From contig MFGN01000005.1 of the NCBI GenBank assembly GCA_001780285.1, positions 138,200-202,199 of the forward strand: a DNA stretch of 64,000 nt. The letters are read 5' to 3'. The stretch is from Candidatus Falkowbacteria bacterium RIFOXYD12_FULL_34_57 (GTDB lineage Bacteria; Patescibacteriota; Patescibacteriia; Patescibacteriales; UBA12075). The notes below the pieces were generated by a model. It was given only the letters and a program-made list of their open reading frames with translations. It was not told the origin of the DNA and made no database searches. Below, one piece after another: positions 1,832 through 63,223 of the stretch (position 1 is the stretch's first letter; every line of letters starts with the position of its first letter). A program made the translations under genes and the position numbers.

Positions 1832-2572
1832 TTATTTTTTAGCGGTAGACCAGAGAAGTTTGAATTGTTCAAGATGAGAAATGCGCAGTTTCTCATTTTT
1901 TATTTCAATAATAAAGGGATCATCAGTAAAAGATTGGATGTTTACGCAATTTGGCCAGATAACAGTAGTTGAGAGGTGAGTCAGATTATAGGGGAGGAAA
2001 CGGGTTTGTTTTAATTGTTTGTTTTTCTGGTGATTCCCGAACTCATTTCTAAATTTTTCATTAGCTAGGTGCTGAGAATAAATTTTTCTTTTAGTGCGCA
2101 GTTTTTCGTATTCTTCATCCATGAATTTATTACCGATAATATCATTGAATTTTCCGGAATAGCCGTTAATAATATGAACTGTTTCTCCTGCGGGAAAATT
2201 GCGGAATTTATTAATAATATATCTTTTAATTTTTTCTCTTCCGTCATAAACATTGATTTCATGTTCATGGCGGCTTTTTTTCATAGATTCTTTTATGGTC
2301 TTTGCCAATCTGACGGCTATGATTTCCTGTTTTTTGGCATTTTCAATCAAAATATCAGGGTTCATGATTTTGTAATGGCTGATTTTGTTTTTGATATTTT
2401 TAAAGACCATATTGCGGTCTTCCAGTTCTTCCAGGGCGTTATAAATACTTTGTCTGTGTAGTTTGAGGTCAGAAATAATAGAGCCTACCGATGTTTCACC
2501 AATTTTTAAGAGACTGAGATAAACCAATATGGCATTATGGCTTAGCCCCATTTTTTGTAGATCTTCTTTCAT
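1832..2572 (-). CDS. TrmB-family HTH transcriptional regulator
   Basis: N-terminal winged-HTH pattern LQKMGLSHNAILVYLSLLKIGETSVGSIISDLKLHRQSIYNALEELEDRNMV. Start moved to the internal MKEDLQK Met (2572); the track start at 2617 adds 15 unlikely residues. Confidence 0.7.
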   Translation of the reverse strand: MKEDLQKMGLSHNAILVYLSLLKIGETSVGSIISDLKLHRQSIYNALEELEDRNMVFKNIKNKISHYKIMNPDILIENAKKQEIIAVRLAKTIKESMKKSRHEHEINVYDGREKIKRYIINKFRNFPAGETVHIINGYSGKFNDIIGNKFMDEEYEKLRTKRKIYSQHLANEKFRNEFGNHQKNKQLKQTRFLPYNLTHLSTTVIWPNCVNIQSFTDDPFIIEIKNEKLRISHLEQFKLLWSTAKK

Positions 2573-2638
2573 ATTAGTAGTACGGATGTGTACGGATTCT
2601 ATAACGAATACATACAAATCACAGATTATTTTTTTTGT

Positions 2639-2718
2639 GTCATTCTGAACTTGATTCAGAATCTATGAGGTGCTCAAAAAGTTTTACTATGTGGATTCTG
2701 AATCAAGTTCAGAATGAC
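2639..2718. repeat. GTCATTCTGA-family palindromic element, copy 1
   Basis: Perfect 25-bp inverted arms gtcattctgaacttgattcagaatc (2639-2663) and gattctgaatcaagttcagaatgac (2694-2718) around a 30-nt spacer. Each arm is itself a small palindrome (ttctgaa/ttcagaa). Confidence 0.9.
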
Positions 2719-2881
2719 AGAGAAGGGGGGTAATTTTTAAAAATTTATTTTTTTGAAAAAAATCTAAAAAAAGTAATGATTTTAAAGGGTATTTAGGGGT
2801 GTCTAAATTTTTTTGACAATAAAATTATTATTTAGCTAATTATAGTATTAGTATATATCAAAAATGATTAGTTGTCAAGTA

Positions 2882-2927
2882 TTGTCAACCAAAAAAGGTT
2901 GACAAGTTTTAAAAAGTGCGCTATAGT
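2882..2927 (+). promoter_or_regulatory. promoter with overlapping palindromic operator for the nucleotide operon
   Basis: TTGACA (2899-2904), 17 nt, TATAGT (2922-2927). A perfect 9-bp inverted repeat ttgtcaacc (2882-2890) / ggttgacaa (2897-2905) overlaps the -35. An extra ttgtcaa half-site lies just upstream. Confidence 0.55.
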
Positions 2928-3004: not shown

Positions 3005-3634
3005 ATGCAGGTAGGATTACCCAAGGGGCACCTGAAAGAAAATATTATTAGGATTTTGTCAGAAAGCGGAATTACTTTTACCTTTAAAAATGATCGTGAT
3101 TATCGCCCTGTTTGCAATTTGTCCTGGATTGAAGCTAAAATGTTTCGGGCCGGAGCAATTCCCCAACTTGTATCTTTGGGAAAAGTCGATATGGGATTTT
3201 GCGGACTGGATTTGGTTCGGGAAAAAGATTATGAAAATGTTTGTGTGATTTATGATTTGGGTCTTAATCCGGTAAGGCTGATGGTCGCTGTCCACGAATC
3301 TCAGAAAGGTATTCTGGATTATCCCCCCGAGCGTCCCTTGATTATTGCCACTGAGTATGAATCTTTGGCTGCTAGGTGGGCTTTCGAAAAAGGATTGAGC
3401 CATATCACTGTTCAGACCCATGGTTCTACCGAGGCATATGCTCCGGAACATGCTGATATTATTTTTGATTGTGTGGAAACAGGGGTTACCATGAAAGCTA
3501 ATAATTTGGTTATCGTTGATGAGATTTTAGATAGTACTACGCATTTAGTGGCTAATAAATTTTCTCTTCGTAATAGATATCTAAGTGAACAGATAGAAGA
3601 AGTTGTGGAAAAAATACGTAGGAGCAATCACTAA
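3005..3634 (+). CDS. hisG: ATP phosphoribosyltransferase-like protein (short-form HisG family)
   Basis: Strong SD (aaaggagga) 7 nt upstream. Collinear with HisG: LPKG..., DMGFCGLDL, RLMVAV, IATEY, and the near-signature EAYAPEHADIIFDCVETGVTM. No other his genes in the window. Confidence 0.7.
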   Translation: MQVGLPKGHLKENIIRILSESGITFTFKNDRDYRPVCNLSWIEAKMFRAGAIPQLVSLGKVDMGFCGLDLVREKDYENVCVIYDLGLNPVRLMVAVHESQKGILDYPPERPLIIATEYESLAARWAFEKGLSHITVQTHGSTEAYAPEHADIIFDCVETGVTMKANNLVIVDEILDSTTHLVANKFSLRNRYLSEQIEEVVEKIRRSNH

Positions 3635-3673
3635 TTAACTAAATTAAAAATTATGACAAAAAAGGAGAAAAAA

Positions 3674-4924
3674 ATGAGCATCAACGTTATTATCGGAGCC
3701 CAGTGGGGCGATGAGGGTAAGGGGAAACACGGCGATATTATTTCGGAAAAAGCAGATTATATGGTTCGTTTTCAGGGCGGCGCTAATGCCGGGCATACTT
3801 TGGTAATTGACGGAGAGAAGATTATTATGCATCTTTTGCCGGTAGGTATCATGCGTCCTAGTGTTGTTAATCTGGTCGGTCCTTATGTCTTGATGGATTT
3901 AGAAGTTCTGGAAGAGGAATTAGCAATTGCTAAAAAATGTGGCGCTAAAATTATTCTGGATAGTTCTGCTCCGGTAGTTTTACCGATTCATAAGCAGATT
4001 GACCGGGGTCGTGAAAAATTAGCCGGTAAGAGTGCTATTGGTACGACTCAGAGGGGCATCGGTCCGACTTATGAAGATTTTTGGTCTCGTCGTTTTGTGA
4101 AATTGGGTGATCTGGTGAGTAAAGAAAGGTTTAGTAAAGCTTTACTTCAGAGCGGATATCTTCAAGAAAAGACAGCTCAGGTTAAATTTTTGCGCGAAAA
4201 TCCTTGGAGTCATAAAAAGTTATTGGAATGGGGTGATAAGTTCTATGATTTAATCAAACCCTTTTTGGGAGATACCAGGGCTATTGTAGCAAAAGCCATT
4301 GCCGAAAAGAAGAATATTCTTTTTGAAGGGGCGCAGGGAGTTATGCTTGACGCTCTGCATGGAGCTCATCCCTATTGTACTTCTTCCTTTTGTACTTTGG
4401 CTGCAGTTAACGCCAGTTTCGGAGTTTATAATTTTGATCGAGTAATCGGGATTGCTAAGGCTTATGTAACTCGTGTCGGAGCCGGTCCTTTTCCCACAAA
4501 ATTGGATAATTCCATTGGTGAAAATATCAGGACTGTCGGAGCAGAGTTCGGTGCTACCACTGGTCGGCCCAGAGATTGTGGCTGGCTCGATTTGGTAGCT
4601 CTTAAATACGCTTGTCGGATGGGGGGGGTAACAGAATTGCAGATCACTAAATTGGACGTAATGACCGGTCTGAAAGAAATTAAAGTTTGCGTGGGATATG
4701 AAGATGTGGATGAATACGCCTCACTTACTCTTGATGTTTTGGAAAATGCTAAACCAGTATACAATGTATTTCCGGTTTGGGAAGACGATATTTCGAAAGT
4801 AAGTGAATATGATAAACTCCCGCCGGAAGCAAAAGAATATTTGGCATTTTTGGAAAATTTCCTTGGTGTACGGATCTCTGCTGTCGGAGTCGGTCCTGAC
4901 CGTAAACAGATTCTTTACTGTTAA
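3674..4924 (+). CDS. purA: adenylosuccinate synthetase
   Basis: GAQWGDEGKGK P-loop, GGANAGHT, TTQRGIGP, GTTGRPR motifs. Start set at 3674 (AAGGAG SD upstream) rather than the track start 3653. Confidence 0.95.
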   Translation: MSINVIIGAQWGDEGKGKHGDIISEKADYMVRFQGGANAGHTLVIDGEKIIMHLLPVGIMRPSVVNLVGPYVLMDLEVLEEELAIAKKCGAKIILDSSAPVVLPIHKQIDRGREKLAGKSAIGTTQRGIGPTYEDFWSRRFVKLGDLVSKERFSKALLQSGYLQEKTAQVKFLRENPWSHKKLLEWGDKFYDLIKPFLGDTRAIVAKAIAEKKNILFEGAQGVMLDALHGAHPYCTSSFCTLAAVNASFGVYNFDRVIGIAKAYVTRVGAGPFPTKLDNSIGENIRTVGAEFGATTGRPRDCGWLDLVALKYACRMGGVTELQITKLDVMTGLKEIKVCVGYEDVDEYASLTLDVLENAKPVYNVFPVWEDDISKVSEYDKLPPEAKEYLAFLENFLGVRISAVGVGPDRKQILYC

Positions 4925-4986
4925 ACAAAATAAAAGGGCTTACGTAGAAAATGCGTAAGCCTTAAAATTTTCATAGAGGAGATAAA

Positions 4987-5865
4987 ATGATTGATATTAA
5001 TAAGCTTACGGAAGAAGAGTTTAAAGCATTACCCTCAGTAGCTGAAGGTGAAAGTAAAGAAGTTCGTTATGCCGGTAAGGGATTGGTGGTTATTCGTTTT
5101 AAACCTACGATTTATAGTTTTACTGCTAATCGTTGCGGTGTGGTTCCTGGATCTGATATTTTAAGACTTCGGGCTAGTAAGGTTTTTTTGGAGCTTTTTC
5201 GGCAGAAAGGGATTAAACATGCTTATCGGGAAATTAATGATAAGTGGGTCTTGTCTGATTTAATATTACAACCCGGGACAGAGCTGAATCCCCACCCTTT
5301 CAGACCCGATGATATGAATAAAGAAGAAATTGCTAAACTAGCTGTTGCTGCTCCGATTGAAATAGTTGTAAAGAATATGCATACCGGCACATCCAAACAT
5401 CGTTATTATGGAATGATCGGTCATCCGATTAGAAAAAGTCATAATTTTTATCCTGGATTTACCTTTGAAGGAGATGGCGCTTATCCGGAGACAGTAGTTC
5501 GTTTTGATTGGCGTAATCCTTTAAAAGATAACAATGGTAACCGTTTGGCAGATGAGATTCTACCTGATGAATTAGCGGACTGGTATATTAATACTAAAAA
5601 GGCCAGAGGAACAGCCCTTAAAGTGGGAGATGTTGTGGCCGAATTCTTAAATGAATATGATATTGTTTTTTATGACCTTTGTTTGTTCATTACAGAAGAC
5701 GGTGAAACTGTTTTTGGTGAGATTAGTCAGGATTGTGGCCGGTATCGTCATTTTGACCTTGGATCTCTGGATAAAGATGCCTGGCGTGCCGGAGGGTCAA
5801 GCGAGATAGTTTTGAAAAAGTGGGATTTGCTTTTAAAATATATTACCGACAAAGGAGGGGAATAA
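4987..5865 (+). CDS. purC: SAICAR synthetase-like (PurC family) protein, divergent
   Basis: By-eye collinearity with PurC: EGESKEVRY (vs GKAKTVY), IEIVVKNMHTGT (vs VECVVRNRAAGS), FYDLCLF...GEISQDCGRYR (vs LVDFKLEFG...DEFSPDGSRLW), DKDAWR (vs DKDRFR). SD GAGGAG upstream. Confidence 0.55.
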   Translation: MIDINKLTEEEFKALPSVAEGESKEVRYAGKGLVVIRFKPTIYSFTANRCGVVPGSDILRLRASKVFLELFRQKGIKHAYREINDKWVLSDLILQPGTELNPHPFRPDDMNKEEIAKLAVAAPIEIVVKNMHTGTSKHRYYGMIGHPIRKSHNFYPGFTFEGDGAYPETVVRFDWRNPLKDNNGNRLADEILPDELADWYINTKKARGTALKVGDVVAEFLNEYDIVFYDLCLFITEDGETVFGEISQDCGRYRHFDLGSLDKDAWRAGGSSEIVLKKWDLLLKYITDKGGE

Positions 5866-5866
5866 A

Positions 5867-6523
5867 TTGAAAAAGTTTTTTATTGGTACGACCAATCCGA
5901 ACAAGATAAGGGAAATCGGTGGAATACTGCGATCTACGGGTTGTGAATTTGAGCCCATTGGTACAGTAGATCCGGAAGAAACTGAAGATAATTTTGAAGG
6001 CAACGCTATTATTAAGGCTTTAGCTTATGCAAAAGCCAGTAGAGGCATCACTATTTCAGAGGATTCCGGAATTCTGATTCCGTCTCTGAATAATTTACCC
6101 GGTCCTTGGTCAGCCAGATTTAGTGATTGTAAACTGGAAAAAGAAAATGGTATCTATCGGATTCTGGAATATCATGAAAGTGCTTTATCCCGTGAAGATA
6201 TTGATCGTAAGAACAATGAATTGGTATTGGATTTGATGAAAGATGTTCCCTTTTCCAAGCGAGTAGCAAAATTTTGTGTGATTTTGATTGTGGCTAATGA
6301 AAGAGGAAATATTCTTTTTAAGGCAAGCGGCGAAAGTACGGGGTGGATTAGTACGGAAATGCATGGAATGAATGGTTTCGGGTATGATCCGATATTTGTT
6401 GGGGGTGACACTCATGGTAAAACCTATGCGGAACTTGATAACATGAGAAAGAATCTCAGAAGTCATCGAAAAAAGGTTTTGGATGAATTTAAAGCCTGGT
6501 TGGGATTTTATTTGAAAAAATGA
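5867..6523 (+). CDS. rdgB: non-canonical purine NTP pyrophosphatase (RdgB/Ham1 family)
   Basis: GTTNPNKIREI, SEDSGIL, GFGYDPIF and SHR motifs. TTG start with GGAGGGG SD; abuts the stop of the upstream gene. Confidence 0.9.
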   Translation: MKKFFIGTTNPNKIREIGGILRSTGCEFEPIGTVDPEETEDNFEGNAIIKALAYAKASRGITISEDSGILIPSLNNLPGPWSARFSDCKLEKENGIYRILEYHESALSREDIDRKNNELVLDLMKDVPFSKRVAKFCVILIVANERGNILFKASGESTGWISTEMHGMNGFGYDPIFVGGDTHGKTYAELDNMRKNLRSHRKKVLDEFKAWLGFYLKK

Positions 6524-6888
6524 AAATTATAATTGATGGTAATGACGGAGTAGGGAAGAGTACTTTGGTGCTTTCCTTGAAAGATTTGGGATATGAGGTT
6601 TCTGACAGAGGACTTCCCACTATCATGACCGATGATCCAAATACTGAATTAAAGCAAAATGAAATTTATATTATTCTGGATGTTTCGGTTGAGATTTCTC
6701 AAAAGAGACTTCTGGAAGCCGGTAAGGATTTGAATGAAAGATATCATTGTTTGGATGATTTGAAATATTATCGGGAAAAATTTCTGGAAATACAAAAAAA
6801 ATTACCTTTTTCAGTATTAATTGATGCTTCTGTTTCGAAGCAAGAAGTATTACAGAATTCTTTGGAGTTTATAAAAAAATTTTTATAA
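6520..6888 (+). CDS. small P-loop nucleotide/nucleoside kinase-like protein
   Basis: N-terminal IIIDGNDGVGKST resembles the thymidylate/deoxynucleoside kinase P-loop. Only 122 aa. ATGA start/stop overlap with rdgB. Confidence 0.5.
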   Translation: MKIIIDGNDGVGKSTLVLSLKDLGYEVSDRGLPTIMTDDPNTELKQNEIYIILDVSVEISQKRLLEAGKDLNERYHCLDDLKYYREKFLEIQKKLPFSVLIDASVSKQEVLQNSLEFIKKFL

Positions 6889-6895
6889 AAATAAT

Positions 6896-6925
6896 AAAAC
6901 CGTTCTAAAATAGAACGGTTTTTAT
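6896..6925. terminator. bidirectional rho-independent terminator
   Basis: Hairpin aaccgttc-taaaata-gaacggtt flanked by an A-run and a T-run, between convergent genes. Confidence 0.7.
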
Positions 6926-6940
6926 ATTGAAGAAAACTTT

Positions 6941-9900
6941 TTATTCGGATATCTTCATTTTATCCTTGCATAGGCCGATATAGATGATGGGGATTACTAC
7001 CAGGGTAAGGATAGTAGAGAAAATTAATCCAAAAATTACAGTAAGGCTTAAGCCGCGCCACATTTCATCAGCATAGATCAATGGGAAAATACCGGCGATA
7101 GTGGTGATGGATGTCAGGAATATCGGCTGCATGCGGGTGACGCCGGCATCGATGATCGCTCCGAAGAATTCCATGCCGTGGCTGATGTTTTTGTTTATAC
7201 GATCGATCAGCACAATGGCGTCATTGACTACGATGCCGGCCAATGAGACAATACCGATAAATGCCGGAAAAGAAAATGGCTGCCCGCAAATATTCAGGCC
7301 GATAATTACGCCGATGATGGCTAGCGGTAGAGAAAAAATAATGATAAACGGCTGTTTAAACGAATTGAATTGTAAAACCAATATAAAGGCAATTAAGATT
7401 ACTGCCACAATCATAGAGTAAAAAATTTCACTGAATGATTTTTGAATATCTTCGGTTTCCCCGCCAACTTTAATAGATACGCCCTTTGGCAGATTTAATT
7501 CTTTTTGAAATTTATCAAATTGGCCCATTATGTTTTGCAGATTTACCCCTTCTTTGGTGTAGGCCGAAACTATTACCACGGTTTCACCATCGCGGTGTTT
7601 AATAGAGAGCAGGGATGGGTTCAGGCTTATTGAGGCGACTTGTTTCAATTGAATTGTCTCTCCCGTGTTTGTAAAAAGCAGAATGTTTTCTAGGTCGTTT
7701 ACAGTATTAAAAGATTGCTCTTCATATTTTACTGTAATATCAATAGTTTCGCCATCGCGAGTTATGTCTCCGGCATTGGCTCCGAAAACCGCATTTCTTA
7801 GAGTGGATGCAATACCACTAATGCTTAACCCATAATAATTAGCTTTTTGTTTATCGACTACAAAAGTGAACTCTCCAGAAGCGTTTTCTAGATTATTTTT
7901 AATGTTAACTACGCCAGGCACAGAGGAGAGGAAGCCTTGAATTTCTCTAGCTAAATTTGAAAGGTCTTTCATTTCGTCTCCGAAAATGCGGATTTCAATC
8001 GGTGCTCCGCTTGGGGGTCCTGCGCTTAATTCTTCTACGGTTACCTTGGCGCCTTGTATGGTTTCTAATTCCGGCCTAAGGCTTTCTGAAATTTCAAAAC
8101 TTTTTCTTTTGCGTTTTTCAGAATCAACTAAATTAACTGTAATGTTTGCCAGATGGGTTCCGTTTCCGCCCCCCGAACCATACCCCAGAGACGCAGTAGA
8201 TCCAATATTTACAACATAATTATCCAGTTCCGGCACTCTGGATATTATTTTTTCTGTTTCTTTTGATATTTCTTCTGTTTTTTCTAAAACAGAACCCACG
8301 GGAAGCTCGATATTTACTACAAAATAATCAATATCTACCTTTGGGAACATCTCTATTTTCATAATTCCGGATATGGGGGTAGCTACAGCTAAAATAAAAA
8401 GGATAACAAAAATTGTGATAACTTTTCTTCTTTTGTTTTTGTGCGGTAATGTTTTTTGGAGGAAATTAATATATTTGATTTGAATTTTGTTAAAAATAGT
8501 TTCTACTCTTTTTTTCCTTTTTGAATTTTCTTGATGTTTTTGCTCTCCTTTCATGAAGCGGGTGGCAAGCGCAGGAACCACTGCTAGCGCCACAAATAAG
8601 CTGGAGAGCAGGGTGGTGGTGATGGTTTTTGGCAAGATAGACATATATTCTCCCATAATGCCGGAGACAAGAAGCATGGGCAGGAAGGCGGCAACGGTGG
8701 TCATGGTGCCAGAGATGATAGCCCATTTAAAGTTCCAAACAGAAAGAATGGCCGCTTCAAATATAGATTTTTTATGTTGGGATATATATTCGTTTATTCC
8801 CTCAATAACTATAATAGCATTATCAACCATTAACCCAAGAGAAAGCACCAATGAAAAAAGCACCATGCTATTTAAAGTCATTCCCTGTATTTTTAGGGCT
8901 GAAAAAGTAATTAAAAAGGCGATGGGTATAGATAATGCGGTGATTATAGCTCCGTTCAAGCTTAGAATTAGCATTAGTATCAAGGCAATAAGCACCATAG
9001 TTTGAAGTCCGCTAGACCCCAAAGTATGAATATCTTTTTTTATAAAAACTGAGTTATCGTTTGTTTTTATGATTTGCAGATTTTTCGGAATTATTCCTTT
9101 TTCGTATAGTTCATCAATTTTTGCACCAGAATCTTTTACGATATTTAAAATATTTCCGCCGGTTTTTTTGTATATTTGCAGGGAAATGGTTTGTTTTGAT
9201 TCTTGATTTTTGAGACCAATTCTTGATTTACTATTTTTTTCTTTTATACCTTCTTTAACTAAGGCAATATCTTTTAGAAATACGGGGGAGTTGTTGTATG
9301 TTGTAATCACCACATTGTTTAAATCTATAGCATCCAAGAATTTACCCTTAACCCGCACATCATATTTAAATCCGTCTACTTCTATGTTTCCCGAAGGAAG
9401 ACTGAAATTGTTGGTGTGAATAGCATTTACAATCTGACCCATGGATATGTTGAAATAAGCTAATTTGGTTTGATGCACCATGATTTGAAACTCTTTTTCT
9501 ATACCGCCGATAATTCGGCTTTCCGAAACATTTTTGATATTTTCAAAATTTTCTTGGCAGATGTCCGCATATTTTTTTAACTCTTCTTCTGTATAATCCC
9601 CAAGCAGTGAGTATGTGATAATGGGAAGATCGTTAAAATTTATTTCACTAACTATCGGATTTTCAGCCATCTCCGGAAGCTCCGACTCGACATTATCTAC
9701 TTCCTCTCGGAGTTTGCGAAAAGATTCCCGCAGGTCGGCACTGGCTTCAAATTCTATAAAGATAGAAGAGAATCCTTCACCGGAAGAAGATTCAAATTTA
9801 TTGACATTATCCAAGTTTTCAATTTTCTTTTCCAGTTTTTTTGTGATCATTTCTTCTATGTCTTTTGGATTTGCTCCCGGGTAAACTGTTGTTACTATCG

Positions 9901-10102
9901 CATATGGTACTTGGATTTCCGGTTCAGCTTCTTTGGGGAGGGTAAAAAGAGAATAAATACCGCTAAATGTGATTGCAATCAGAAGCAGATAGGTAAGCCT
10001 GAAATTTTTAATAAAAAAACCAAAAAAAGATTTTTTTTCTTTTTCCAGTCCTTCCTCCATTATCTTTTTATAATTATCCGAGTAATTATTTTTATTGTTC
10101 AT
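6941..10102 (-). CDS. RND efflux transporter, AcrB/AcrD/AcrF family
   Basis: 1053 aa with the 12-TM architecture and two large extracytoplasmic loops. Typical RND segments (e.g. NAIVLIDRIN, GIVVNDAI, MRLRPILMT-like MQPIFLTSITT). Confidence 0.9.
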   Translation of the reverse strand: MNNKNNYSDNYKKIMEEGLEKEKKSFFGFFIKNFRLTYLLLIAITFSGIYSLFTLPKEAEPEIQVPYAIVTTVYPGANPKDIEEMITKKLEKKIENLDNVNKFESSSGEGFSSIFIEFEASADLRESFRKLREEVDNVESELPEMAENPIVSEINFNDLPIITYSLLGDYTEEELKKYADICQENFENIKNVSESRIIGGIEKEFQIMVHQTKLAYFNISMGQIVNAIHTNNFSLPSGNIEVDGFKYDVRVKGKFLDAIDLNNVVITTYNNSPVFLKDIALVKEGIKEKNSKSRIGLKNQESKQTISLQIYKKTGGNILNIVKDSGAKIDELYEKGIIPKNLQIIKTNDNSVFIKKDIHTLGSSGLQTMVLIALILMLILSLNGAIITALSIPIAFLITFSALKIQGMTLNSMVLFSLVLSLGLMVDNAIIVIEGINEYISQHKKSIFEAAILSVWNFKWAIISGTMTTVAAFLPMLLVSGIMGEYMSILPKTITTTLLSSLFVALAVVPALATRFMKGEQKHQENSKRKKRVETIFNKIQIKYINFLQKTLPHKNKRRKVITIFVILFILAVATPISGIMKIEMFPKVDIDYFVVNIELPVGSVLEKTEEISKETEKIISRVPELDNYVVNIGSTASLGYGSGGGNGTHLANITVNLVDSEKRKRKSFEISESLRPELETIQGAKVTVEELSAGPPSGAPIEIRIFGDEMKDLSNLAREIQGFLSSVPGVVNIKNNLENASGEFTFVVDKQKANYYGLSISGIASTLRNAVFGANAGDITRDGETIDITVKYEEQSFNTVNDLENILLFTNTGETIQLKQVASISLNPSLLSIKHRDGETVVIVSAYTKEGVNLQNIMGQFDKFQKELNLPKGVSIKVGGETEDIQKSFSEIFYSMIVAVILIAFILVLQFNSFKQPFIIIFSLPLAIIGVIIGLNICGQPFSFPAFIGIVSLAGIVVNDAIVLIDRINKNISHGMEFFGAIIDAGVTRMQPIFLTSITTIAGIFPLIYADEMWRGLSLTVIFGLIFSTILTLVVIPIIYIGLCKDKMKISE

Positions 10103-18046: not shown

Positions 18047-18070
18047 ATGTTAAAATGTTAAGATGAATTT
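18047..18070 (+). promoter_or_regulatory. ATGTTAAA octamer array with extended -10-like TGTTAAAAT; predicted leaderless start of leuS
   Basis: Octamers atgttaaa|atgttaag|atgaattt. TG (18048-18049), n, TAAAAT (18051-18056), 6 nt, then ATG 18063. Confidence 0.4.
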
Positions 18071-21000
18071 TATGACTAATAAATATAACCATCAAAAAAT
18101 TGAAAAGAAATGGGCGGAAAGATGGGTAAAAGATAAGGTTTTTTCGCCTGATTTAAAAAAATCAGAGAACCCCTATTATGCCTTGTTTATGTTTCCTTAT
18201 CCTAGTGCAGAAGGGCTCCATATCGGCAATTTTTATGCATTTACCTGTGTTGATGTCATGGCTAAATATAAGAAATTACAGGGAATGGACGTGTTTGAAC
18301 CGGTTGGTTTTGATGCTTTTGGAATTCATAGTGAAAATTATGCATTAAAAATAGGGGAAACTCCTCGGAAAATGTTGGATAGGACTATTGTTAATTTTCG
18401 CAAGCAGCTTAGCTCAGCCGGACTTGGCTGTGATTGGACTCGCGAAATAGATACCACCACTCCGGAGTATTACAAGTGGACACAATGGATTTTTACCAAG
18501 CTTTTTGAAAAAGATCTCGCTTATCAAAAAGAAGCTTTGCTTAATTGGTGTTCCGGATGCAAAACAGTATTGGCTGATGAGCAAATTGAGGATGGGGTCT
18601 GCGAACGATGCAAGACTGTTCCGGAAAAAAAAACAATGAAGCAATGGTTTTTCAGAATCACCAAATATGCCGAGAAGCTTTTAAACGGACTTGAGACGAT
18701 GGATTGGTCGGATATCACCAAGTCGGCGCAAAGAAATTGGATTGGCCGCAGCGAAGGAGCGGAAGTAGAGTTTGTTATAAAAAACGAAAGAAATGATATA
18801 AAAAAAATTTATCTTGGAACAGGTAATAAATCAAAAATAGAAAGACTGGAAAAAATTTTTAAATATGTTAATCCGGATATTAAAATTGAACAAGTTCCGG
18901 AAGTGGTTGATGTTCCGGAAGAAAGCGATAATGGACTGGAGAATTCTAAGCAGAAAGTTTTAGCTTATCATGGTAAATATGACTATCCGGTTGTCTCTTG
19001 TGATACTTCTGTATTTTTTGAAGGAGAAGATTTTGATCCGACGCATGTCAAGAGGGTTGCTCTGGGGGGCGAGGATGAATCCGGCTTTAGCCAGAGGGAA
19101 ATTGCGGAAAAAATAAAGGATTTTTATATAGACATTGCCAGGAAATACGGAGGTCGGAAAGAATTTTATTTTGAGGATGCCTGGACAATTCTTTTTCCCA
19201 ATGGTGAAATTAAGCAGTTAAAATATCGCAGAGAATACATTATGACAGATAAATTGCAGGGGGAGCTTGATATTTATTTTCCGATGAGAAGCCTGTATCT
19301 GGTCAAAGCGACAGGCAGAGATATTTTTAATCAGACCGAGGAAGAATGGAAAAAAGAATTTCAGCCCCAGATTGATGCCTTTAGCGGTGTTTTTGGAAAA
19401 AGTAAATTAAAAGTTTTTACCACTAGACCGGATACATTGTTTGGCGCGACTTATTTTGTAATGTCTCCTGAACACCCGTTAGTGAGGGAAATAACCACAA
19501 AAGAACAAAGCGAAAAAATAGAGGATTATATTAAAAAATCTGGAGCGAAGTCTGAATTGGAAAGAACGGAAAACAAGGAAAAAACAGGAGAATTTACCGG
19601 CGCCTATGTTGTAAATCCGGTAAATAACGAAGAAATCCCGGTGTTTGTGGCGGATTATGTAATGATGGGATATGGCACCGGAGCTATAATGGCTGTACCG
19701 GCGCATGATGAACGCGATTTTGAGTTTGCAAAAAAATTTAACATTTCGATTAAAGAAGTGGTCAAACCAAAAAATAGCGGAAAAGATAAAACAATTTTAG
19801 TGCTTCACGGACTTTGCGATGATTCTTCCAAACACTGGTTTCCATGGTTTAAGCAGGAGTTTGGTGGCAGGGGCTACAATGTGATTATTCCGGATATGCC
19901 CAATCCGCATTTGCCTCGCGTAGAAAGATGGATGGATTGCTTAAAAGAATTAAAAGATGATTTAAGCGGGAATTTGACCATTGTTGGTTTTAGCTTGGGA
20001 ACACAAGCGGCGTGCATGTTTATTGATAAATATAATGTTGCAGTAAATAATTTAATTTTAGTGGGGCCAAGTGAAAAAGAGGGAAAGACGATTGAGGAAT
20101 TAGTTGAGGCCGGACTGCCCAGAGAAAGCCTCGAACATAGCGAAAAATTCGGAGAAGAGAGGGTTGATTGGAAAAATGTAAGAAGACTGGTTAAAAACAC
20201 TATTCAATATTTGTCCAGCAATGATCCCTATATTGAAATAGAAACTGAAAAATATTCAGATGTTTTAAATCCGCAAAAAAGAATATTTTTTAATAGGGGG
20301 CATTTTACGGAAAAATTCGGCATAGATAAGATACTGGAATTAATTCCTGATATTGAAGGCTGTACGGTTGGCGATGGCATAGCTGTGAATTCTGGATTCT
20401 TGGACGGTTTAGAAACTTCGACAGCAAAAGAAAAAATGATATCTTGGCTGGAAGGAAAGAAAATTGGCAAAGGAGTAGTGAATTATCGCTTAAGGGATTG
20501 GTGTATATCCAGACAAAGATATTGGGGCCCTCCTGTACCGATTGTGTATTGCGCGAAGTGCGGAGCTTTGGCTGTTTTCGAAAAAGATTTGCCGGTAAGG
20601 CTGCCCGAACTAGAGAAGGGCTGGGAGCCCGTGGGAGACGGAAGGGGGCCCTTGGCCAATGTTGATGATTTTATGAATACAACTTGTCCAAAATGCGGAG
20701 GCGCGGCCAGCCGCGAAGCGGATGTGATGGATAATTTTCTCGATTCGGCTTGGTATTTTTTTAGATATATAGACCCTAAAAATAACAATAAAATTTTTGA
20801 TCAAAAGCTTGGTAAAAAATGGCTTCCAGTTGATTTTTATGTAGGGGGAAATGAGCACGCAGTTCTTCACTTAATGTATACAAGATTTATCACTATGGCG
20901 CTGCACGATATCGATCTGATTGATTTTGATAATCCCTTCAAAAAATTTCGCGCTAACGGCATGATACTTAAAGACGGAAAAAAAATGAGCAAATCCAAAG

Positions 21001-21656
21001 GTAATGTTATTAATCCGGAAGAATATGGGGAAAAGGTGGGCTATGATGCCCTGAAAACATATTTATTATTTTTAGGGCCATTAAATGAAGATCGTTCATT
21101 TACCGATGAGGGTGTGCGCGGAACAAAACGATGGGTGGAGAAAATTGCGCGACTGGAAGAAAAAATTAAAAATAGCCATAAAGACGAAAATGAAATTATA
21201 AACAAATTACATAAAACTATAAAAATGGTAACAGATGACTTTGAAGACCAGAGATATAATACAGCTGTTGCCAGACTCATGGAATTAACTAATGTTTTAA
21301 ATTTAGCAGATAAAATTTCCACTCAAACATGGAAATCCTTTTTGGTTTTAGTATCCCCCTTTGTTCCGTCTATAGCCGAGGAAATGTGGGAAAGACTGGG
21401 AAATAAGAATTCAATTTTTAGCGACAAGCTGTGGCCCGAATATGATGCAAAATTAGCTCATGACGAATTTATTGAGTTGATTGTTCAGGTCAATGGAAAA
21501 TTAAGAGAAAAAATTGAAGTATCTATAGATATCACGGAGGAAGAAGCAAAAAAAATTGCATTAGAAAGTGGAAAAATAAAAAAATGGATAGAAGGAAAAA
21601 AGATTGAAAAAGTGATTTTTGTAAAAGGAAAATTGATAAATATTGTTGTTAAATAA
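18063..21656 (+). CDS. leuS: leucyl-tRNA synthetase with two large inserted domains (1197 aa)
   Basis: Motifs: HIGN (HIGH), RNWIGRSEGAEVEF, TTRPDTLFGATY and GTGAIMAVPAHDERDFEFA (CP1 editing), NYRLRDWCISRQRYWG, KMSKSKGN. About 340 extra residues lie in two blocks (about nt 18783-19403 and 19782-20357). Confidence 0.95.
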   Translation: MNFMTNKYNHQKIEKKWAERWVKDKVFSPDLKKSENPYYALFMFPYPSAEGLHIGNFYAFTCVDVMAKYKKLQGMDVFEPVGFDAFGIHSENYALKIGETPRKMLDRTIVNFRKQLSSAGLGCDWTREIDTTTPEYYKWTQWIFTKLFEKDLAYQKEALLNWCSGCKTVLADEQIEDGVCERCKTVPEKKTMKQWFFRITKYAEKLLNGLETMDWSDITKSAQRNWIGRSEGAEVEFVIKNERNDIKKIYLGTGNKSKIERLEKIFKYVNPDIKIEQVPEVVDVPEESDNGLENSKQKVLAYHGKYDYPVVSCDTSVFFEGEDFDPTHVKRVALGGEDESGFSQREIAEKIKDFYIDIARKYGGRKEFYFEDAWTILFPNGEIKQLKYRREYIMTDKLQGELDIYFPMRSLYLVKATGRDIFNQTEEEWKKEFQPQIDAFSGVFGKSKLKVFTTRPDTLFGATYFVMSPEHPLVREITTKEQSEKIEDYIKKSGAKSELERTENKEKTGEFTGAYVVNPVNNEEIPVFVADYVMMGYGTGAIMAVPAHDERDFEFAKKFNISIKEVVKPKNSGKDKTILVLHGLCDDSSKHWFPWFKQEFGGRGYNVIIPDMPNPHLPRVERWMDCLKELKDDLSGNLTIVGFSLGTQAACMFIDKYNVAVNNLILVGPSEKEGKTIEELVEAGLPRESLEHSEKFGEERVDWKNVRRLVKNTIQYLSSNDPYIEIETEKYSDVLNPQKRIFFNRGHFTEKFGIDKILELIPDIEGCTVGDGIAVNSGFLDGLETSTAKEKMISWLEGKKIGKGVVNYRLRDWCISRQRYWGPPVPIVYCAKCGALAVFEKDLPVRLPELEKGWEPVGDGRGPLANVDDFMNTTCPKCGGAASREADVMDNFLDSAWYFFRYIDPKNNNKIFDQKLGKKWLPVDFYVGGNEHAVLHLMYTRFITMALHDIDLIDFDNPFKKFRANGMILKDGKKMSKSKGNVINPEEYGEKVGYDALKTYLLFLGPLNEDRSFTDEGVRGTKRWVEKIARLEEKIKNSHKDENEIINKLHKTIKMVTDDFEDQRYNTAVARLMELTNVLNLADKISTQTWKSFLVLVSPFVPSIAEEMWERLGNKNSIFSDKLWPEYDAKLAHDEFIELIVQVNGKLREKIEVSIDITEEEAKKIALESGKIKKWIEGKKIEKVIFVKGKLINIVVK

Positions 21657-26715: not shown

Positions 26716-29700
26716 ATGTTCAACAAACCTATTCTTAAATTGATACTGCCGGTAGTTATTATTTTTGTTTTGTTTTTTGGTTCAAGTAGTGTTATTTTGG
26801 CGCAGACAATACAAACAACTGATTGGGAGTCTATTAATACTGAAATAGAGGGTAATGTGCAAAATGAAAAGAATTGGCTTAAGGATTCACTTATGTGGCT
26901 TCAAAATTTTTCTTGGAAAAAGGCTGGTTCGGTGGCTTTTTGGTCGGCTGTAAAAAGCGCTTTGAACCAGATTGCTTATGATACCGCCACTTGGATCGGT
27001 TCCGGCGGCAAAGGACAGAAGCCGATGTTTATTACCGAGGGGTGGGGGGAATATTTAAAAAATATCGGAGATAACGCTGCTGGAACTTTTTTAGAAAGTT
27101 TGGGAAATGAGAATGGCTGGAAAAAGTTTAATCTTTGCAATCCAAGTTCGGATATAAGAATCAAAATAGGATTGGGACTCGTGGACGATTATAGGCCCAA
27201 GAAACCCTCATGTACTTTTTCTAAAATGAAAGAAAATTGGTCTCAGGCCCTAAAAAGCGATAATTTTTTAACCAATCTGCAGAATGCTTTTGATCCGACC
27301 GAGTCTACCTTGATCCAGGCTCTGTCGATTCATACTAGTTTTTGGGGCACTCTGGATCTAAAAAAAGAAGTAGATGGTTTGGATAGGATAGAAAATGAGG
27401 GTTGGTTGGATATTAGCGGTATAGCCGGTACCAGAGAAAATCCGCCGGGACACGCCAAAAGCAAGTTAGAGCAAGCTAAAAGGATTAGGGAGGCGTCTTT
27501 TTCCGAGAACACGGAAGACGCTTTTGAAGATGCTATCAATATATTTTTAAATAAGCTGGCAGTAGAGCTTTTTAATCGTTTACTGGAGTCGTTGGGGAAG
27601 GGCAGTAAATACTCAGGCTCTTATAATTGGAGCGGTTTAAATATTGGCAGCTTGTCGGATTTTTATAGTGAAAACGATTCAGGGGGAGTAGTGGCCGCAA
27701 AAGTAAAATTTAAAAAATTAGTTGAACCGAGTTTTAATGTCCGTGGGGATTATAATATTCTAGCAGAACTTGCTATGTGTCCAGATCCAAACAAGGCCGG
27801 ACCCACTAACTGTGTTATCTCTGAAGAGTTTAAAACCGCAGTGGAAAACAACATGACGGTAGGAGAGGCAATACGTGCCGGCTATCTGGACCCAAGCGGC
27901 ATTTTTGGATTTAATGCTAATGGCATAGAACCTTTGTATAATGAAGGATATCCTTATCGCTCCATGGTAATTTTACGAAAATTCAGAATTCTGCCTGTCG
28001 GCTGGGAACTTGCCGCCCAGTTTATTAAGGATAACCAGCAAATAACAGGCGGAGCGCAGAATTTGGAATATTTAGTAAATTGTTTTGACCCTAACGATGA
28101 TTACGGAAACATTTCACCTGTTTGGTGCCGTGGATTTGTGGACCCGAATTGGGTACTCAAGGCCCCGCTTAATTATTGCGAGCGCTCAGGCCCGGGACCG
28201 GAAATATTGTATCAGACAATAGTTGGTCAGGGGGGCGATAGTAGTTTGGTGGTGAGCAGAAATGATGATTACTGCGCCGATGAGAAAACATGCATAAAAG
28301 AGGAGAATGGAATTTGCAGGCTGTATGGATATTGTACTGAAGAAAAACGAACCTGGAATTTTGGCAATAATTCTTGTCAGCCGGAATTTAATACTTGCCA
28401 GGCTTTTCAGTTTTATCAAGGCAACACTTTTGGTTATCTGGAAAATACTTTAGAATATGGCACTTGCAGTATAGATAATGTGGGCTGCCGGGAATACTGC
28501 GAAGATTATGATTATACCAACTCTAATTACACCTGTAATGTTAGTGCTGGAAATAAAATTTATTTAGATCGCGATGCAGAGGTATGTGATAAGGATTCTG
28601 ATGGATGCAGTGAATTTATCAGAACCAAGCCGGTGGCTAAGGCAAATCTGCTTTATGATTCCAGTTTTGAAACTAATTTTGGAATATCTGGTTTGCCTGT
28701 AGTAAACAGGTTGTGCGACGGCGATATGGTGGATGGTGTTTGTAGTTTGCAGTTGACGGGTGATGTGGCACCTGGTGTGGTTCCGATTTTTGATAGCAGT
28801 AATATTCCCCTGCAGGGAGAAGCATTTACTTTTTCTATTTATGCTAAAAATTGCGGTGATGCCGGCAGGATTTTAATTGGGGGAGATGTAAATTGGAGCT
28901 TGAATCACTCTTCCACCACCCTCTCCACTTCTGACACTTGGCAGCGCTTTAGCGTCAGCCATTTGATGATTCCCGGCACCAATGAGGTGTGGGTGGGTAT
29001 AGAAGATATAATTGATAATGGTAATTGCGCAGGTAACGACTGTTGCCGCATTGATTCTGCTAAAATAGAAAGAGGGGAAGGAGCAAGCCCTTATAGTGAT
29101 TACCGGGAAGAAGGGCTTATATACATGAAGCTTCTGCCTGATTATTTGGAAAATGAGTGTTATGTTAATCCGGGAATGGATTACAGCCTAAAAACCAATT
29201 ATCCGGAAGTTTGTGATAATTATAATCGCAAGTGCAATGAAGAGGAATGGGGCTGTGATCTTTATACTTCTATTAAAAATAAATTATCTGTTCCGGCTAT
29301 TACCAAGGCGATGGATTATTGTACGGAAGAGTGTCTTGGATACGATGAGTATTTACAGATGGAATCTCTTTTTGAATCAAAAAATTTGCAATATTTTATT
29401 CCAAAAACTGCCAGAAAATGCAGCGCAGGAGCCGAGGGGTGCAGTGAATTTACTAATTTAGACACTATTCAAGAGGGGGGAGAGAATAGGGAATATTACA
29501 AACACCTTCGAAGATGTATTCGTCCAAATGATCCATTTGCAAATTGCAGCGAGTTTTATACTTGGGAAGGATCATCCGAAACAGGTTTTCAATTGAAAGT
29601 TCATGTTTTACAAGTAGACGAAGACGCAGACGATGTAGTTGGTGTGGATGGTATGTATACCGGAGATCCTGATGTAATAGAAGGGGATCAGCTTGTTTGC

Positions 29701-62500: not shown

Positions 62501-63223
62501 ATTGGTGTATTGACCAAGACTATCAACAAAGAAGGTGATACAGAAGGTACAGCCAGACAGGGTAGAAGCATCAAATTCATGTTTGATGACGATACCACAG
62601 CTATTACAGCTGAGGGTGTAGATTCTGGCGATGCTATTACCATGACCTTGGATGATAATGGTACTTTGATTGATAATGAATACGAAAGAGCTGCCGAAGG
62701 TGTAACCAAAGAAACCAAGATTACCGGTTCTGTATTAACATCCATTGTTAATACTATGAGCGACGCAGTATTGGTTGGCGGTAACGGCAAAATTATTGGA
62801 AAATACAAATTTGTATTTGACAATGGTTTAAACAGATCTACTACAACCAATGAAGCTTTGTTGGCTGAAATGAAGACTCTAGTCTTGAATGTGGCTACTT
62901 CTACCGGTGTGTTAGTATCCGGTATCCAAGCCTATATTGATGGTAACTCTTCAGCAAAAACAACAGCTGTAAATGTGGATGCCAACGGTGAAGCTACTAT
63001 CAGCTTGAGCACCCTGGATGGTACTACAGAAAAAGTTGATGGCGAGGTTACATTGGTGATTATCGGTAACATTTCTGGCGTATCTACAACCGATTATGTA
63101 CAAACCGAGATCGACAACTTAGCTACTGACTTTACCTATGACGGTGAATCAGGATACGCTGTCGACTTCTCTAATACCAGACTTGATATTACTGAAGTTA
63201 TCGGCGGTACAGCATCTAACTAA
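59555..63223 (+). CDS. large secreted S-layer-like / cell-surface protein (1222 aa)
   Basis: Signal peptide ending VGAAAQA. Three N-terminal repeats of about 50-60 aa (SSVYYLGADGKRYVFP / PKVYAVEPGGNLRPIP / ADTYYIDADGMARKIA). The remainder is T/A/V/G/D/S-rich beta-type sequence with only 2 Cys. Locally higher GC and a strong terminator. Confidence 0.85.
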   Translation: MTNLRKALAISVMSITVLSMSMLMVPLTVGAAAQAGDLIKMDGLSSVYYLGADGKRYVFPNEATYFSWYSDFSGVVTVPQSELESYPLGANVTMRAGTKLVKITTNPKVYAVEPGGNLRPIPDETTAAALWGANWNQRIVDVPDAFFTNYTTLTNEVSATAYPAGSLVKYGTGADTYYIDADGMARKIADEAAFMANGFSWDNVVTSTLTMPTAGADITGAETGISDTSEGAGGVAGAGTGLTVALSSATPAAGNIPAGSPNEFLKLSFTAAADGAVNVNSITLTSYNLGTPTYVDSVTFFDEGGLKVGNAKNMNSDGVAVFNFATPFNVPAGTTKTLLVKATIEAGQTSGNFALGVKAVSDIVTNGAVVSGSFPVIGNTKAVVSATIGTVALSNPGLTDVSVEFGEDDVLLASFDLTTANENILWETARFKNGGTNSDSIVSNLRLMINDDEAATAAGLSDKYVTFNLDSFVMNKGETYNVEVYGDIGTTRVLDTVDLYVYDNIDFSFVGQKYGYGVQMTNTLLAAAASGIVATLAAGDFTIDMDKVATPAKDVRAGDNDVVLATMKLTSNGENATLTQMNGSSDNFIITGTGLECNEIENTELRDVDTGVVYDVTVASGTASWTCALTMTDEISFVKGVTRTFQVRTDLKSSTEDSVNYISGDDTLKVTLKSGAISSYLTGDTSDASITNITPSSVTGSIATVKASALTWEVTALTDKTIVPGASDIVIYKSTLEAGASSYIDITSVKLTVSADNGDYTGSFVDSNVSALKLYLDGKLLKTLSNQIADDTDGTATDNYIDFTSLDTTNRRIAAGTKVNLEVIADFASSFATTSTFSLKLATDADVSSKDMDSRAVDETVTNGTSASRSLTLASTGTLKAQIEIDDTKADVDTYILAGAETTHGRYLGEIIFTTANEPVKVKTLLLKRASGATFTSSDVKYVRLYDKDGAMVAEKAPDANGAVNFDTFNYVLPADQATSLFIGVLTKTINKEGDTEGTARQGRSIKFMFDDDTTAITAEGVDSGDAITMTLDDNGTLIDNEYERAAEGVTKETKITGSVLTSIVNTMSDAVLVGGNGKIIGKYKFVFDNGLNRSTTTNEALLAEMKTLVLNVATSTGVLVSGIQAYIDGNSSAKTTAVNVDANGEATISLSTLDGTTEKVDGEVTLVIIGNISGVSTTDYVQTEIDNLATDFTYDGESGYAVDFSNTRLDITEVIGGTASN

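Follow-up and report, generated by a model that had tools for sequence, protein, structure and literature searches.

What would a bacterium that apparently lacks both histidine biosynthesis and de novo purine synthesis do with an operon that combines enzymes of the two pathways? The question is raised by a stretch of 64,000 nucleotides (nt), hereafter the window, from Candidatus Falkowbacteria bacterium RIFOXYD12_FULL_34_57 (contig MFGN01000005.1, positions 138,200 to 202,199, forward strand), in which five plus-strand open reading frames (ORFs) at 3005-6888 form a single operon, with intergenic spacings of 18, 62, 1 and -4 nt. In our best reading, this operon represents a local version of a rare accessory module that has spread horizontally and to which PurA and fusions of histidine-biosynthesis enzymes are optional additions. 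Below, HisG*, PurC*, Ham1* and mK denote the module versions of the respective proteins, and HisAIE denotes a HisA-HisI(-HisE) fusion; what is said about function derives from the sequences, predicted structures and genomic context. The five genes are as follows.

3005..3634, plus strand: HisG*, 209 amino acids (aa), matching TIGR00070 and PF01634
3653..4924, plus strand: PurA, 423 aa, matching NF002223 and TIGR00184
4987..5865, plus strand: PurC*, 292 aa, a weak match to PF01259 and the defining member of the module
5867..6523, plus strand: Ham1*, 218 aa, with a TTG start, matching PF01725
6520..6888, plus strand: mK, a mini P-loop kinase-like protein of 122 aa, weakly matching PF02223 and TIGR00041

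A first-pass annotation of the window had described five tightly packed plus-strand genes with gaps of -4 to 62 nt; the ORFs are located exactly where it placed them, and the identities that it proposed (HisG-like, PurA, PurC-like, RdgB and mini P-loop kinase) are upheld by the profile scores given below.

The genome around the operon

The assembly that contains the window comprises 1.62 Mb in 37 contigs, is 96.6% complete and comes from a Candidatus Falkowbacteria-like member of the candidate phyla radiation (CPR); its RadA is most similar, at 55-63% identity, to proteins of Patescibacteria and Candidatus Falkowbacteria MAGs (metagenome-assembled genomes). A search for sequencing runs listed no RNA data, but DNA runs from groundwater and soil, from which this DNA may originate. 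Profile searches found in the assembly no second HisG and, with PF00977, PF01502 and PF00815, no HisA/HisF, no HisI and no histidinol dehydrogenase around which HisG* could be embedded in a histidine pathway; HisZ was not searched for separately. The purine side is similarly depleted: the assembly contains no canonical PurC, no PurB or any other Lyase_1 protein, no PurH and no AIRS-domain protein (PurM/PurL) that would provide a de novo purine context for PurC*, and neither GuaA nor an adenosine/AMP deaminase (A_deaminase) was found. A tblastn search of the assembly with four PurB and two HisA-HisI(-HisE) proteins gave nothing below E 0.1. Present, on the other hand, are genes for a phosphoribosyl pyrophosphate (PRPP) synthetase, a 350-aa protein of the IMP dehydrogenase (IMPDH)/GMP-reductase type without CBS domains, ThyA, two Tmk-like proteins (one of them fused to dUTPase) and a second Ham1.

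The first-pass annotation had stated that the window holds no other his gene, no purB and no other gene of de novo purine synthesis, which is true of the window and of the whole assembly alike. It had also argued that the operon does not look like either canonical pathway, and had made this depend on a genome-wide inventory of his, pur and PRPP synthase genes. Since no complete pathway of either kind is found elsewhere in the genome, which has neither a his operon nor a de novo purine pathway, and since both HisG* and PurC* fall outside the canonical clades of their families, that argument stands.

PurC*, the defining member of the module

PurC* matches PF01259 only marginally (24.2 bits, cut-off 20) and matches no NCBIfam model. 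Nevertheless, judged by its AlphaFold2 model (pLDDT 93), it has the SAICAR-synthetase fold: the best match in the PDB is the PurC structure 2z02 (TM 0.85, 20% identity), and the best 38 Foldseek matches, from a PDB set that lacked a CofB structure, are all PurC or PAICS (TM up to 0.85, 14-21% identity), with TM values of 0.82-0.85 on PurC structures.

The active site was compared through profile alignments to PurC structures, with the roles of residues in Mg-ATP and aspartate binding (K17, K191 and E193 of PAICS) taken from the human PAICS model (PMC9376930). The position of the aspartate-binding Lys191 is occupied in PurC* by an invariant cysteine, Cys232, and that of the Mg ligand Glu193 by a nearly invariant phenylalanine, Phe234, so that the PurC motif D-F-K-x-E reads D-L-C-L-F; Lys17 corresponds to a nearly invariant glutamate, Glu22, and GKAK reads GESK. 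Several other elements are retained, namely, K24, the second lysine of the GKxK loop, the Mg-bridging glutamate E125, the ribotide-phosphate loop G134-T-S, the D249/R252 pair of the DxxR motif (D212/R215 in PAICS) and, in the DKDxxR motif, K263/R267, which correspond to the aspartate carboxylate binders K228/R232 of PAICS. The family has, in addition, a motif of its own, RFDWRNP, all positions of which are invariant except F173 and D174 (at least 90% conserved), and a second conserved cysteine, C250. Because both the aspartate-binding lysine and the Mg-binding glutamate are replaced, classical Mg-ATP-dependent aspartate ligation by PurC* looks unlikely from its sequence. Cysteine-based chemistry at the carbon corresponding to purine C6 may reasonably be inferred, and no more than that.

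In the phylogenetic tree, a very long branch with a support of 99 divides the whole PurC* superfamily from canonical PurC, so that the PurC-like protein of the window lies outside the canonical clade. Larger genomes that encode both copies show the same division in profile scores, 200-295 bits for the canonical protein against 29-41 bits for PurC*. The window sequence belongs to a well-supported clade of 23 rows in which short branches intermingle modules that have HisG*, HisAIE or PurA with modules that do not. These partners must therefore have come and gone several times while PurC* itself hardly changed.

HisG*

The sole HisG of the genome is a paralogue of the short-form ATP phosphoribosyltransferase that scores 138.8 bits on TIGR00070 (cut-off 75.75) and 122.7 bits on PF01634. 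It retains the PRPP-binding loop D-x3-(S/T)-G-x-T in the form DCVETGVT; the loop is kept in most of the 16 module HisG* sequences, with the Falkowbacteria and Woesearchaeota rows departing from it. The two deviations from the HisG signature to which the first-pass annotation drew attention, an acidic residue in place of glycine and a cysteine after the aspartate, are real, and they are common to most of the module HisG clade and thus a signature of that clade rather than a sign of decay.

The module sequences form one clade (support 97/90) in which phyla are mixed, and which is separate from five of the six canonical HisG proteins of genomes with two copies, the sixth being a long-branch sister; the HisG-like protein of the window, accordingly, is placed outside canonical HisG. 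Where larger genomes encode both copies, the canonical one scores 165-183 bits and the module one 100-117 bits. A scan with motifs of the HisG* clade (derived from 8 sequences) recovered only contigs that already carried PurC*. A complex prediction for HisG* and the mini-kinase gave a score of 0.01, which provides no verdict either way. One module HisG*, in a Polyangiaceae MAG (L011:7362-7982), is interrupted by an in-frame TAA stop, which points to a pseudogene or to a fault in the assembly.

Ham1* and the mini-kinase

Ham1* matches PF01725 (142 bits) in two stretches that are split by an internal insertion, and its score of 138.9 bits on TIGR00042 is just below the cut-off of 145.35. The second Ham1 gene of the assembly lies at contig C16:16518-17093, and most of the module-bearing genomes likewise carry a canonical copy (about 190-220 bits) together with a module copy (140-160 bits). 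We considered the simple possibility that Ham1* replaces HisE and rejected it as a full explanation, because many modules carry a HisE domain plus Ham1*.

The mini-kinase keeps the P-loop and the C-terminal part of a thymidylate-kinase-type protein, and the core that binds the nucleoside monophosphate is missing; the weak matches to PF02223 and TIGR00041 cover profile positions 117-196 only and are below every cut-off. The family (~120 aa) nonetheless shows 59% column identity, with invariant DGNDGxGK, DRG and YR motifs, and in many other genomes and in viruses mK is fused to HisG* or PurC*. In Saccharibacteria, the kinase beside PurC* is a full-length Tmk-like protein that is additional to the housekeeping Tmk. 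The notion that the mini-kinase of the window is the housekeeping Tmk was rejected, given the separate Tmk-like genes on contig C11. There, a 440-aa thymidylate kinase-dUTPase fusion (C11:37207-38529) is found in a compact deoxynucleotide cluster together with the second Tmk-like gene, ThyA, a gene for a protein resembling deoxynucleoside monophosphate kinases and a GMP-reductase-type gene.

The module in cellular genomes

A search of a set of 5.8 billion proteins yielded 477 relatives of PurC*, those listed being 50-71% identical and coming from several phyla (a 99%-identical fragment of the same protein is excluded from this range), and a motif scan of 185,579 GTDB species genomes yielded 59 PurC* loci. 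These are distributed among Saccharibacteria, Uhrbacteria, Falkowbacteria, Vogelbacteria, Parcubacteria, Woesearchaeota (DPANN), Myxococcota and Bdellovibrionota/Oligoflexia, with further loci in a Planctomycetia-labelled MAG, Blastocatellia and Herpetosiphon; more distant members of the family come from Bradyrhizobium, Devosia and Nostocales. The family is nevertheless very rare. Among 400 further Patescibacteria drawn at random, not one yielded a member (0 of 400), only 383 of 1.84 billion cluster representatives match, and the hallmark motifs (RFDWRNP and D-x-C) occur in no Actinomycetota genome among the 185,579. No PurC* was found on plasmids. Throughout this survey, incompleteness of the MAGs touches every absence call outside the window's own genome.

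Mapping by tblastn revealed a recurring gene order, [PurA]-HisAIE-HisG*-PurC*-Ham1*-mK, or the same without HisAIE. The HisAIE fusion, which passes the Pfam cut-offs, is present in about half of the modules and is missing from the window, one Falkowbacteria genome, one Woesearchaeota genome and others; the window's own five-gene order recurs in an Uhrbacteria locus (L026). Saccharibacteria and one Oligoflexia genome have versions that consist of the kinase, PurC* and Ham1 only.

In larger genomes, canonical and module copies coexist for HisG, HisA (196-287 against 130-147 bits), Ham1, PurC and Tmk. By these sequence comparisons, HisG*, PurC*, Ham1* and mK are dedicated paralogues that travel together. 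Neither PADLOC nor PHROGs returned anything for HisG*, PurC* or Ham1*, and no recurrent defence neighbours were seen in the loci examined.

Viral copies and fusion proteins

All 15 Prevotella Lak megaphages of INPHARED (15/15) encode PurC*, at 51% identity and full length, with HisG* ~1.7 kb upstream; no HisAIE homologue was found in these 15 genomes. Lak-like contigs of IMG/VR (genetic code 15) have the order HisG*-mK-Ham1*-cytidylyltransferase/NMNAT-like-PurC*. In one of these (L151), the gene between Ham1* and PurC* (7425-7916) encodes 163 aa and matches PF01467 with 65 bits, and an RNA-ligase-like gene is located upstream (4559-5242). A 335-kb phage contig has the order Ham1*-HisG*-PurC*-HisAIE. 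A 9.7-kb contig labelled as an uncultured Bacilli MAG (L033) carries a PurC* that lies within the Lak-like phage clade on a branch of 0.09, and is probably a mis-binned megaphage fragment.

On contigs of giant-virus MAGs, single proteins of 771-802 aa carry a HisG domain together with a P-loop and, at the C-terminus, a PurC* domain, and the neighbouring genes are eukaryote-type, such as a ubiquitin-leucine-rich repeat protein and poly(A) polymerase. Fusions are common beyond these cases. Local BLAST on the 147 best new cluster representatives identified 26 kinase-PurC*, 10 PurC*-Ham1 and 2 PurC*-Ham1-kinase proteins, as well as several proteins of 1000-1340 aa with the arrangement HisAIE-kinase-PurC* or kinase-PurC*-HisAIE. 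That such fusions arose independently argues strongly for a single pathway in which HisG*, HisAIE*, the kinase, PurC* and Ham1* take part. In the literature that we searched, genes for SAICAR synthetase, HisG or HAM1 were not linked in any paper to megaphages, huge phages or giant viruses.

PurA without PurB

By its profile scores, the PurA of the window is a canonical-type adenylosuccinate synthetase: it reaches 458 bits on NF002223 (cut-off 402) and 423 on TIGR00184 (396), but only 98 on the PurZ model (300). The next enzyme of the canonical pathway, adenylosuccinate lyase, is missing from the assembly, in which neither TIGR00928 nor PF00206 has a match. PurA lies within the module at loci L014, L016, L020, L026, L060 and L065; it is thus a frequent neighbour, but was not seen fused, and many PurC* carriers are without both PurA and PurB.

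Among small module-bearing genomes with canonical PurA, 7 of 9 are without PurB, compared to 12 of the 54 canonical-PurA genomes found among the 400 randomly drawn Patescibacteria, an excess (Fisher p = 0.002) that is not corrected for phylogeny and involves MAGs that are incomplete. PurA may have arrived as part of the module and function within it; the alternative is that the lyase is replaced by one of the module proteins.

Other PurA-like proteins were encountered along the way. About 128-132 kb upstream, on the opposite strand (contig C5:5185-10411), a separate operon encodes a divergent 463-aa PurA-like protein (113 bits) next to an isochorismatase-family gene and three proteins of 296, 373 and 336 aa without a significant Pfam match; similar divergent genes recur in other module-bearing CPR genomes. 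Many CPR genomes also encode a PurA-like protein of 480-530 aa whose match to the PurA model, at 200-250 bits, is confined to about the first 285 positions (e.g., G194:C1:217217-218110). It usually occurs in genomes that also have PurB and may be a CPR-specific form of PurA.

Control sites and local context

Three further features frame the operon.

1832..2617, minus strand: gene for a TrmB-family helix-turn-helix regulator (PF01978 TrmB, 42 bits), transcribed divergently
2850..2927, both strands: divergent promoter pair, back to back, with 11/12 matches each
6896..6922, both strands: bidirectional hairpin resembling an intrinsic terminator, with a 12-bp stem, 4 GC pairs and T-runs on either side

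The promoter and terminator claimed by the first-pass annotation are both recovered, the former as the near-consensus TTGACA-17-TATAGT at 2899-2927 on the plus strand and the latter as the hairpin. The regulator gene has a promoter-like site of its own, TTGACA-17-TATACT, at 2878-2850 on the minus strand. A palindrome read from the sequence, TTGTCAAC-N8-GTTGACAA, covers both -35 boxes and may be the operator; by its position, the TrmB-family protein is a candidate regulator of the operon. No Rfam riboswitch was detected in the 78-nt leader of the operon or in ten related loci. The gene past the terminator, at 6941-10102 on the opposite strand and hence convergent, encodes an AcrB-type pump. Recent transfer as judged by composition was considered and set aside, the GC content of the module (0.39) being ordinary for conserved genes of this genome.

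Just upstream of the start of the TrmB-like gene (window 2633-2724) lies a 31-nt inverted repeat, 94% complementary with a 30-nt loop, for which Rfam gives only spurious microRNA-precursor matches and which could be a hairpin element or a regulatory site. Elsewhere in the window, the leucyl-tRNA synthetase (18063-21656, plus strand; 1197 aa) contains an inserted serine-hydrolase domain (PF06821) at residues 578-751, and a weak Ham1-like stretch is found within this gene region (18807-19058). Pfam gave no match at E 1e-5 for three very large plus-strand ORFs (26716-35271, 37420-39978 and 59555-63223; 2851, 852 and 1222 aa), and a TraG-type P-loop protein is encoded at 43971-45881, near the very large ORFs.

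Possible pathways

Actinomycetota recruit homologues of HisG (PenA/AdeC), PriA/HisA (AdeK) and SAICAR synthetase (PenC/AdeA/CofB) for the synthesis of pentostatin, coformycin and adechlorin (PMC12648386, PMC13055916). By analogy, this recruitment appears to be the only characterised precedent for the gene logic of the module, and it leads us to suppose that the module converts an adenine nucleotide and PRPP into a non-canonical purine nucleotide. Tentatively, and short of conviction, we favour the view that the operon encodes a dedicated route for remodelling adenine nucleotides derived from ATP and PRPP, which would be distinct from histidine biosynthesis, de novo purine synthesis and ordinary salvage.

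In such a route, HisG* would condense PRPP with N1 of ATP or another adenine-type nucleoside triphosphate (NTP), yielding an N1-phosphoribosyl NTP, and the mini-kinase would help to raise the adenine-type nucleotide to the di- or triphosphate level for HisG*. Ham1* would then strip pyrophosphate from the N1-substituted, non-canonical NTP, that is, perform a HisE-type step in a genome that has no HisE gene. PurC* might catalyse the committed, non-ligase step at C6 of the activated nucleotide, an amidine or carboxamide carbon, without ATP-dependent ligation of aspartate, in a manner perhaps comparable to the action of CofB/PenC after ring opening in coformycin and pentostatin synthesis. PurA, with no lyase following, could aspartylate a 6-oxo product or feed adenylosuccinate into the route. 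The end product would be a non-canonical purine nucleotide, and the identity of the carriers of the module favours the view that it most likely serves to manipulate the purine or deaminase chemistry of a host or prey, or else the carrier's own nucleotide pool. A more specific proposal, which we consider possible but rather doubtful, is that PurC* catalyses an undescribed reaction on a nucleotide derived from adenine, for instance, at C6 of N1-phosphoribosyl-adenylate or an elimination of fumarate in place of adenylosuccinate lyase. With HisG*, Ham1* and mK, it would then make up a pathway common to ultra-small symbionts, predatory bacteria, megaphages and giant viruses, all of which draw on the nucleotide pool of another cell, and the nucleotide produced would be used in that conflict.

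Several observations weigh against the remodelling route. HisI, HisE and HisA are absent here, in genomes G005, G018 and G028 and in the Lak phages, where a ring-opened substrate of the CofB type is not one that known enzymes could make. PurC*, Ham1 and the kinase are found in genomes that have no HisG at all, namely, five Saccharibacteria and one 3.4-Mb Oligoflexia, and the PurC* sequences of these genomes are nearly unchanged and interleaved with the others in the tree, which suggests that the substrate of PurC* may not be the product of HisG. A reductase of the CofA/PenB type does not recur near the module (59 loci; the neighbours examined by Pfam show no short-chain dehydrogenase/reductase). 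PurC* itself, set apart by a hallmark-motif scan in which no Actinomycetota genome matched, is probably not of the CofB/PenC lineage. Finally, the order of the steps and the roles given to mK, Ham1* and PurA are those that we infer from the sequences. The absence of HisI, HisE and HisA, the HisG-less carriers and the lack of a travelling reductase jointly speak against viewing the module as a plain replica of coformycin synthesis.

Among the alternatives, interconversion or salvage of purines in a purine-auxotrophic symbiont, with the operon closing gaps between adenylate and inosinate (IMP), fares best, although we regard it as unlikely. Under this scenario, the GuaC-like protein and PurA would convert GMP via IMP to adenylosuccinate, and PurC* would most plausibly replace the missing adenylosuccinate lyase; alternatively or in addition, HisG* would prime adenine nucleotides, by phosphoribosylating N1, for their conversion to inosinate by deamination, and Ham1* would pull inosine triphosphate to IMP. 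The gene content of the genome, with an IMPDH/GMP-reductase-type protein and canonical PurA and without PurB, GuaA and A_deaminase, is compatible with these reactions, as is the retention in PurC* of the equivalents of K228/R232, which in PAICS bind the aspartate/succinyl carboxylate. The best support comes from the excess of PurA-without-PurB genomes described above, and PurA recurs beside PurC* in distant branches and near a giant-virus copy. A housekeeping function of this kind, however, is hard to reconcile with the extreme rarity of PurC*, with its presence in Myxococcota and other genomes that also possess full canonical PurA/PurB/PurC/His sets, and with the many carriers that have neither PurA nor PurB. 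Moreover, the HisAIE fusions in about half of the modules would have no role, and deamination that consumes PRPP would be far costlier than the action of a hydrolytic deaminase. The first-pass annotation had suggested a salvage or interconversion route with a PRPP-dependent transferase and with RdgB (Ham1*) removing IMP/XMP-derived triphosphates; of the evidence bearing on this suggestion, the PurA-without-PurB excess speaks for it, and the absence from the 400 other Patescibacteria, the extra paralogues and the fused viral sets fit it poorly.

Less probable still is a genuine pathway of the coformycin/pentostatin type, in which HisG*, followed by HisE or Ham1*, HisI and HisA, would make phosphoribulosylformimino-5-aminoimidazole-4-carboxamide ribonucleotide (PRFAR), which PurC* would cyclise to a 1,3-diazepine nucleotide; this product, resembling 8-ketocoformycin-5'-phosphate, would inhibit the adenosine or AMP deaminases of host or prey. 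The gene logic is indeed that of PenA/PenC and of AdeC/AdeK/AdeA, in relatives whose PurC* is 60-69% identical, a dedicated HisA-HisI(-HisE) fusion is encoded immediately next to HisG* and PurC*, and proteins exist in which HisAIE, kinase and PurC* are fused. As Ren et al. reportedly found in 2020 (in PNAS), the CofB reaction is independent of phosphoryl transfer, which the loss of the Mg- and aspartate-binding residues from PurC* would fit. In the genome studied here, the strict route is unlikely because HisI, HisE and HisA are absent, and carriers without any HisG, the failure of a CofA/PenB-type reductase to recur, and hallmark motifs that occur in no Actinomycetota genome all speak against it more generally; the small carriers, furthermore, have no A_deaminase target of their own.

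We consider it improbable that the module makes, mimics or recycles a signal or cofactor of the NAD/ADP-ribose type, for instance, in counter-defence by a virus or a symbiont. The chemistry would be suitable: HisG creates an N1-glycosidic bond, which is established for phosphoribosyl-ATP and for cyclic ADP-ribose, and N1-(5-phosphoribosyl)-AMP is cyclic ADP-ribose with the pyrophosphate opened. The NMNAT-like gene (PF01467, 65 bits) between Ham1* and PurC* in Lak-like phages points in the same direction, and carriage by megaphages and giant viruses fits a function in conflict. This gene, however, was not seen in cellular modules, the partners HisI, HisA and HisE would destroy an N1-ribosyl-adenylate, and the loci examined gave no PADLOC matches and no recurrent defence neighbours. 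As for the idea that housekeeping genes of nucleotide metabolism came to lie side by side by chance or convenience, without sharing a pathway, CPR genomes do pack unrelated genes tightly, and PurA and Ham1 are common housekeeping genes, but the conservation of gene order over several bacterial phyla, DPANN archaea and viruses, the multiple independent fusions, and the second Ham1 and separate Tmk genes in the same genome make it hardly credible.

Implications

Should the remodelling route be correct, gene transfer has carried a compact set of enzymes, drawn in part from histidine and in part from purine biosynthesis, into very different dependent entities: CPR bacteria, DPANN archaea, predatory bacteria, gut megaphages of 0.5 Mb and giant viruses that infect protists. 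Identification of the product would then open up a new branch of purine chemistry, assign a role to genes conserved in Lak phages and giant viruses, and explain how PurA can be kept without PurB in several CPR genomes. The product, perhaps an inhibitor of deaminases or a modified nucleotide, could be a new small-molecule weapon or a means of counter-defence. The module proteins are small and look soluble.

Comparison with known systems

The clusters for pentostatin, coformycin and adechlorin resemble the module in that paralogues of HisG and of proteins with the SAICAR-synthetase fold, in some cases together with HisA, divert the chemistry of ATP and PRPP. They differ in that the actinomycete clusters include a reductase (PenB/CofA), whereas the module has none and instead has Ham1* and the mini-kinase as constant partners; unlike those clusters, the module also occurs without HisI, HisE and HisA, and even without HisG. 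The carriers differ as well, being CPR bacteria, DPANN archaea, predators and large viruses in the one case and antibiotic-producing actinomycetes in the other. Given that the hallmark motifs of PurC* occur in no Actinomycetota genome, the recruitment was probably independent.

A second parallel is fungal. Cns3 of Cordyceps militaris, from the pentostatin/cordycepin cluster, is said to have been described by Xia et al. in 2017 as a nucleoside-kinase domain fused to a HisG domain. Compared by description, it shares with the module a small nucleotide-kinase-like domain that is fused or adjacent to a HisG paralogue, as at loci L008 and L017 and in the giant-virus fusions; its cluster reportedly has no PurC-like or Ham1 partner.

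With respect to the canonical pathways, HisG* passes the equivalog model, and relatives carry HisA-HisI-HisE fusions, so the module recalls the HisG, HisE, HisI and HisA steps of histidine biosynthesis. It is, however, without HisF/H, HisB, HisC and HisD, the genome of the window also lacks HisE, HisI and HisA, and, unlike the canonical histidine enzymes, the module copies form clades of their own beside the canonical copies in larger genomes. Similarly, PurC* shares with canonical PurC/PAICS the fold, the ribotide-phosphate loop, the Asp/Arg pair of DxxR and the DKDxxR motif, but it is only 14-21% identical, has cysteine in place of lysine, phenylalanine in place of glutamate and glutamate in place of the first lysine of GKAK, and has no PurE/K or PurB context.

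Paralogues of purine enzymes are put to other uses in formycin synthesis, where they are reported to include ForA, ForB and ForC (bioRxiv 10.1101/728154). Like that set and the PurZ-MazZ-DatZ set, the module combines paralogues of the PurA and PurC families, an NTP pyrophosphatase and kinases, and would use them for a non-canonical purine nucleotide. PurZ-MazZ-DatZ is a viral gene cluster for genomes that contain 2-aminoadenine. In contrast to the PurZ sets, the PurA of the window is canonical-type (98 bits on the PurZ model against a cut-off of 300), the module has no PurB-type lyase, and there is no sign of a modified genome.

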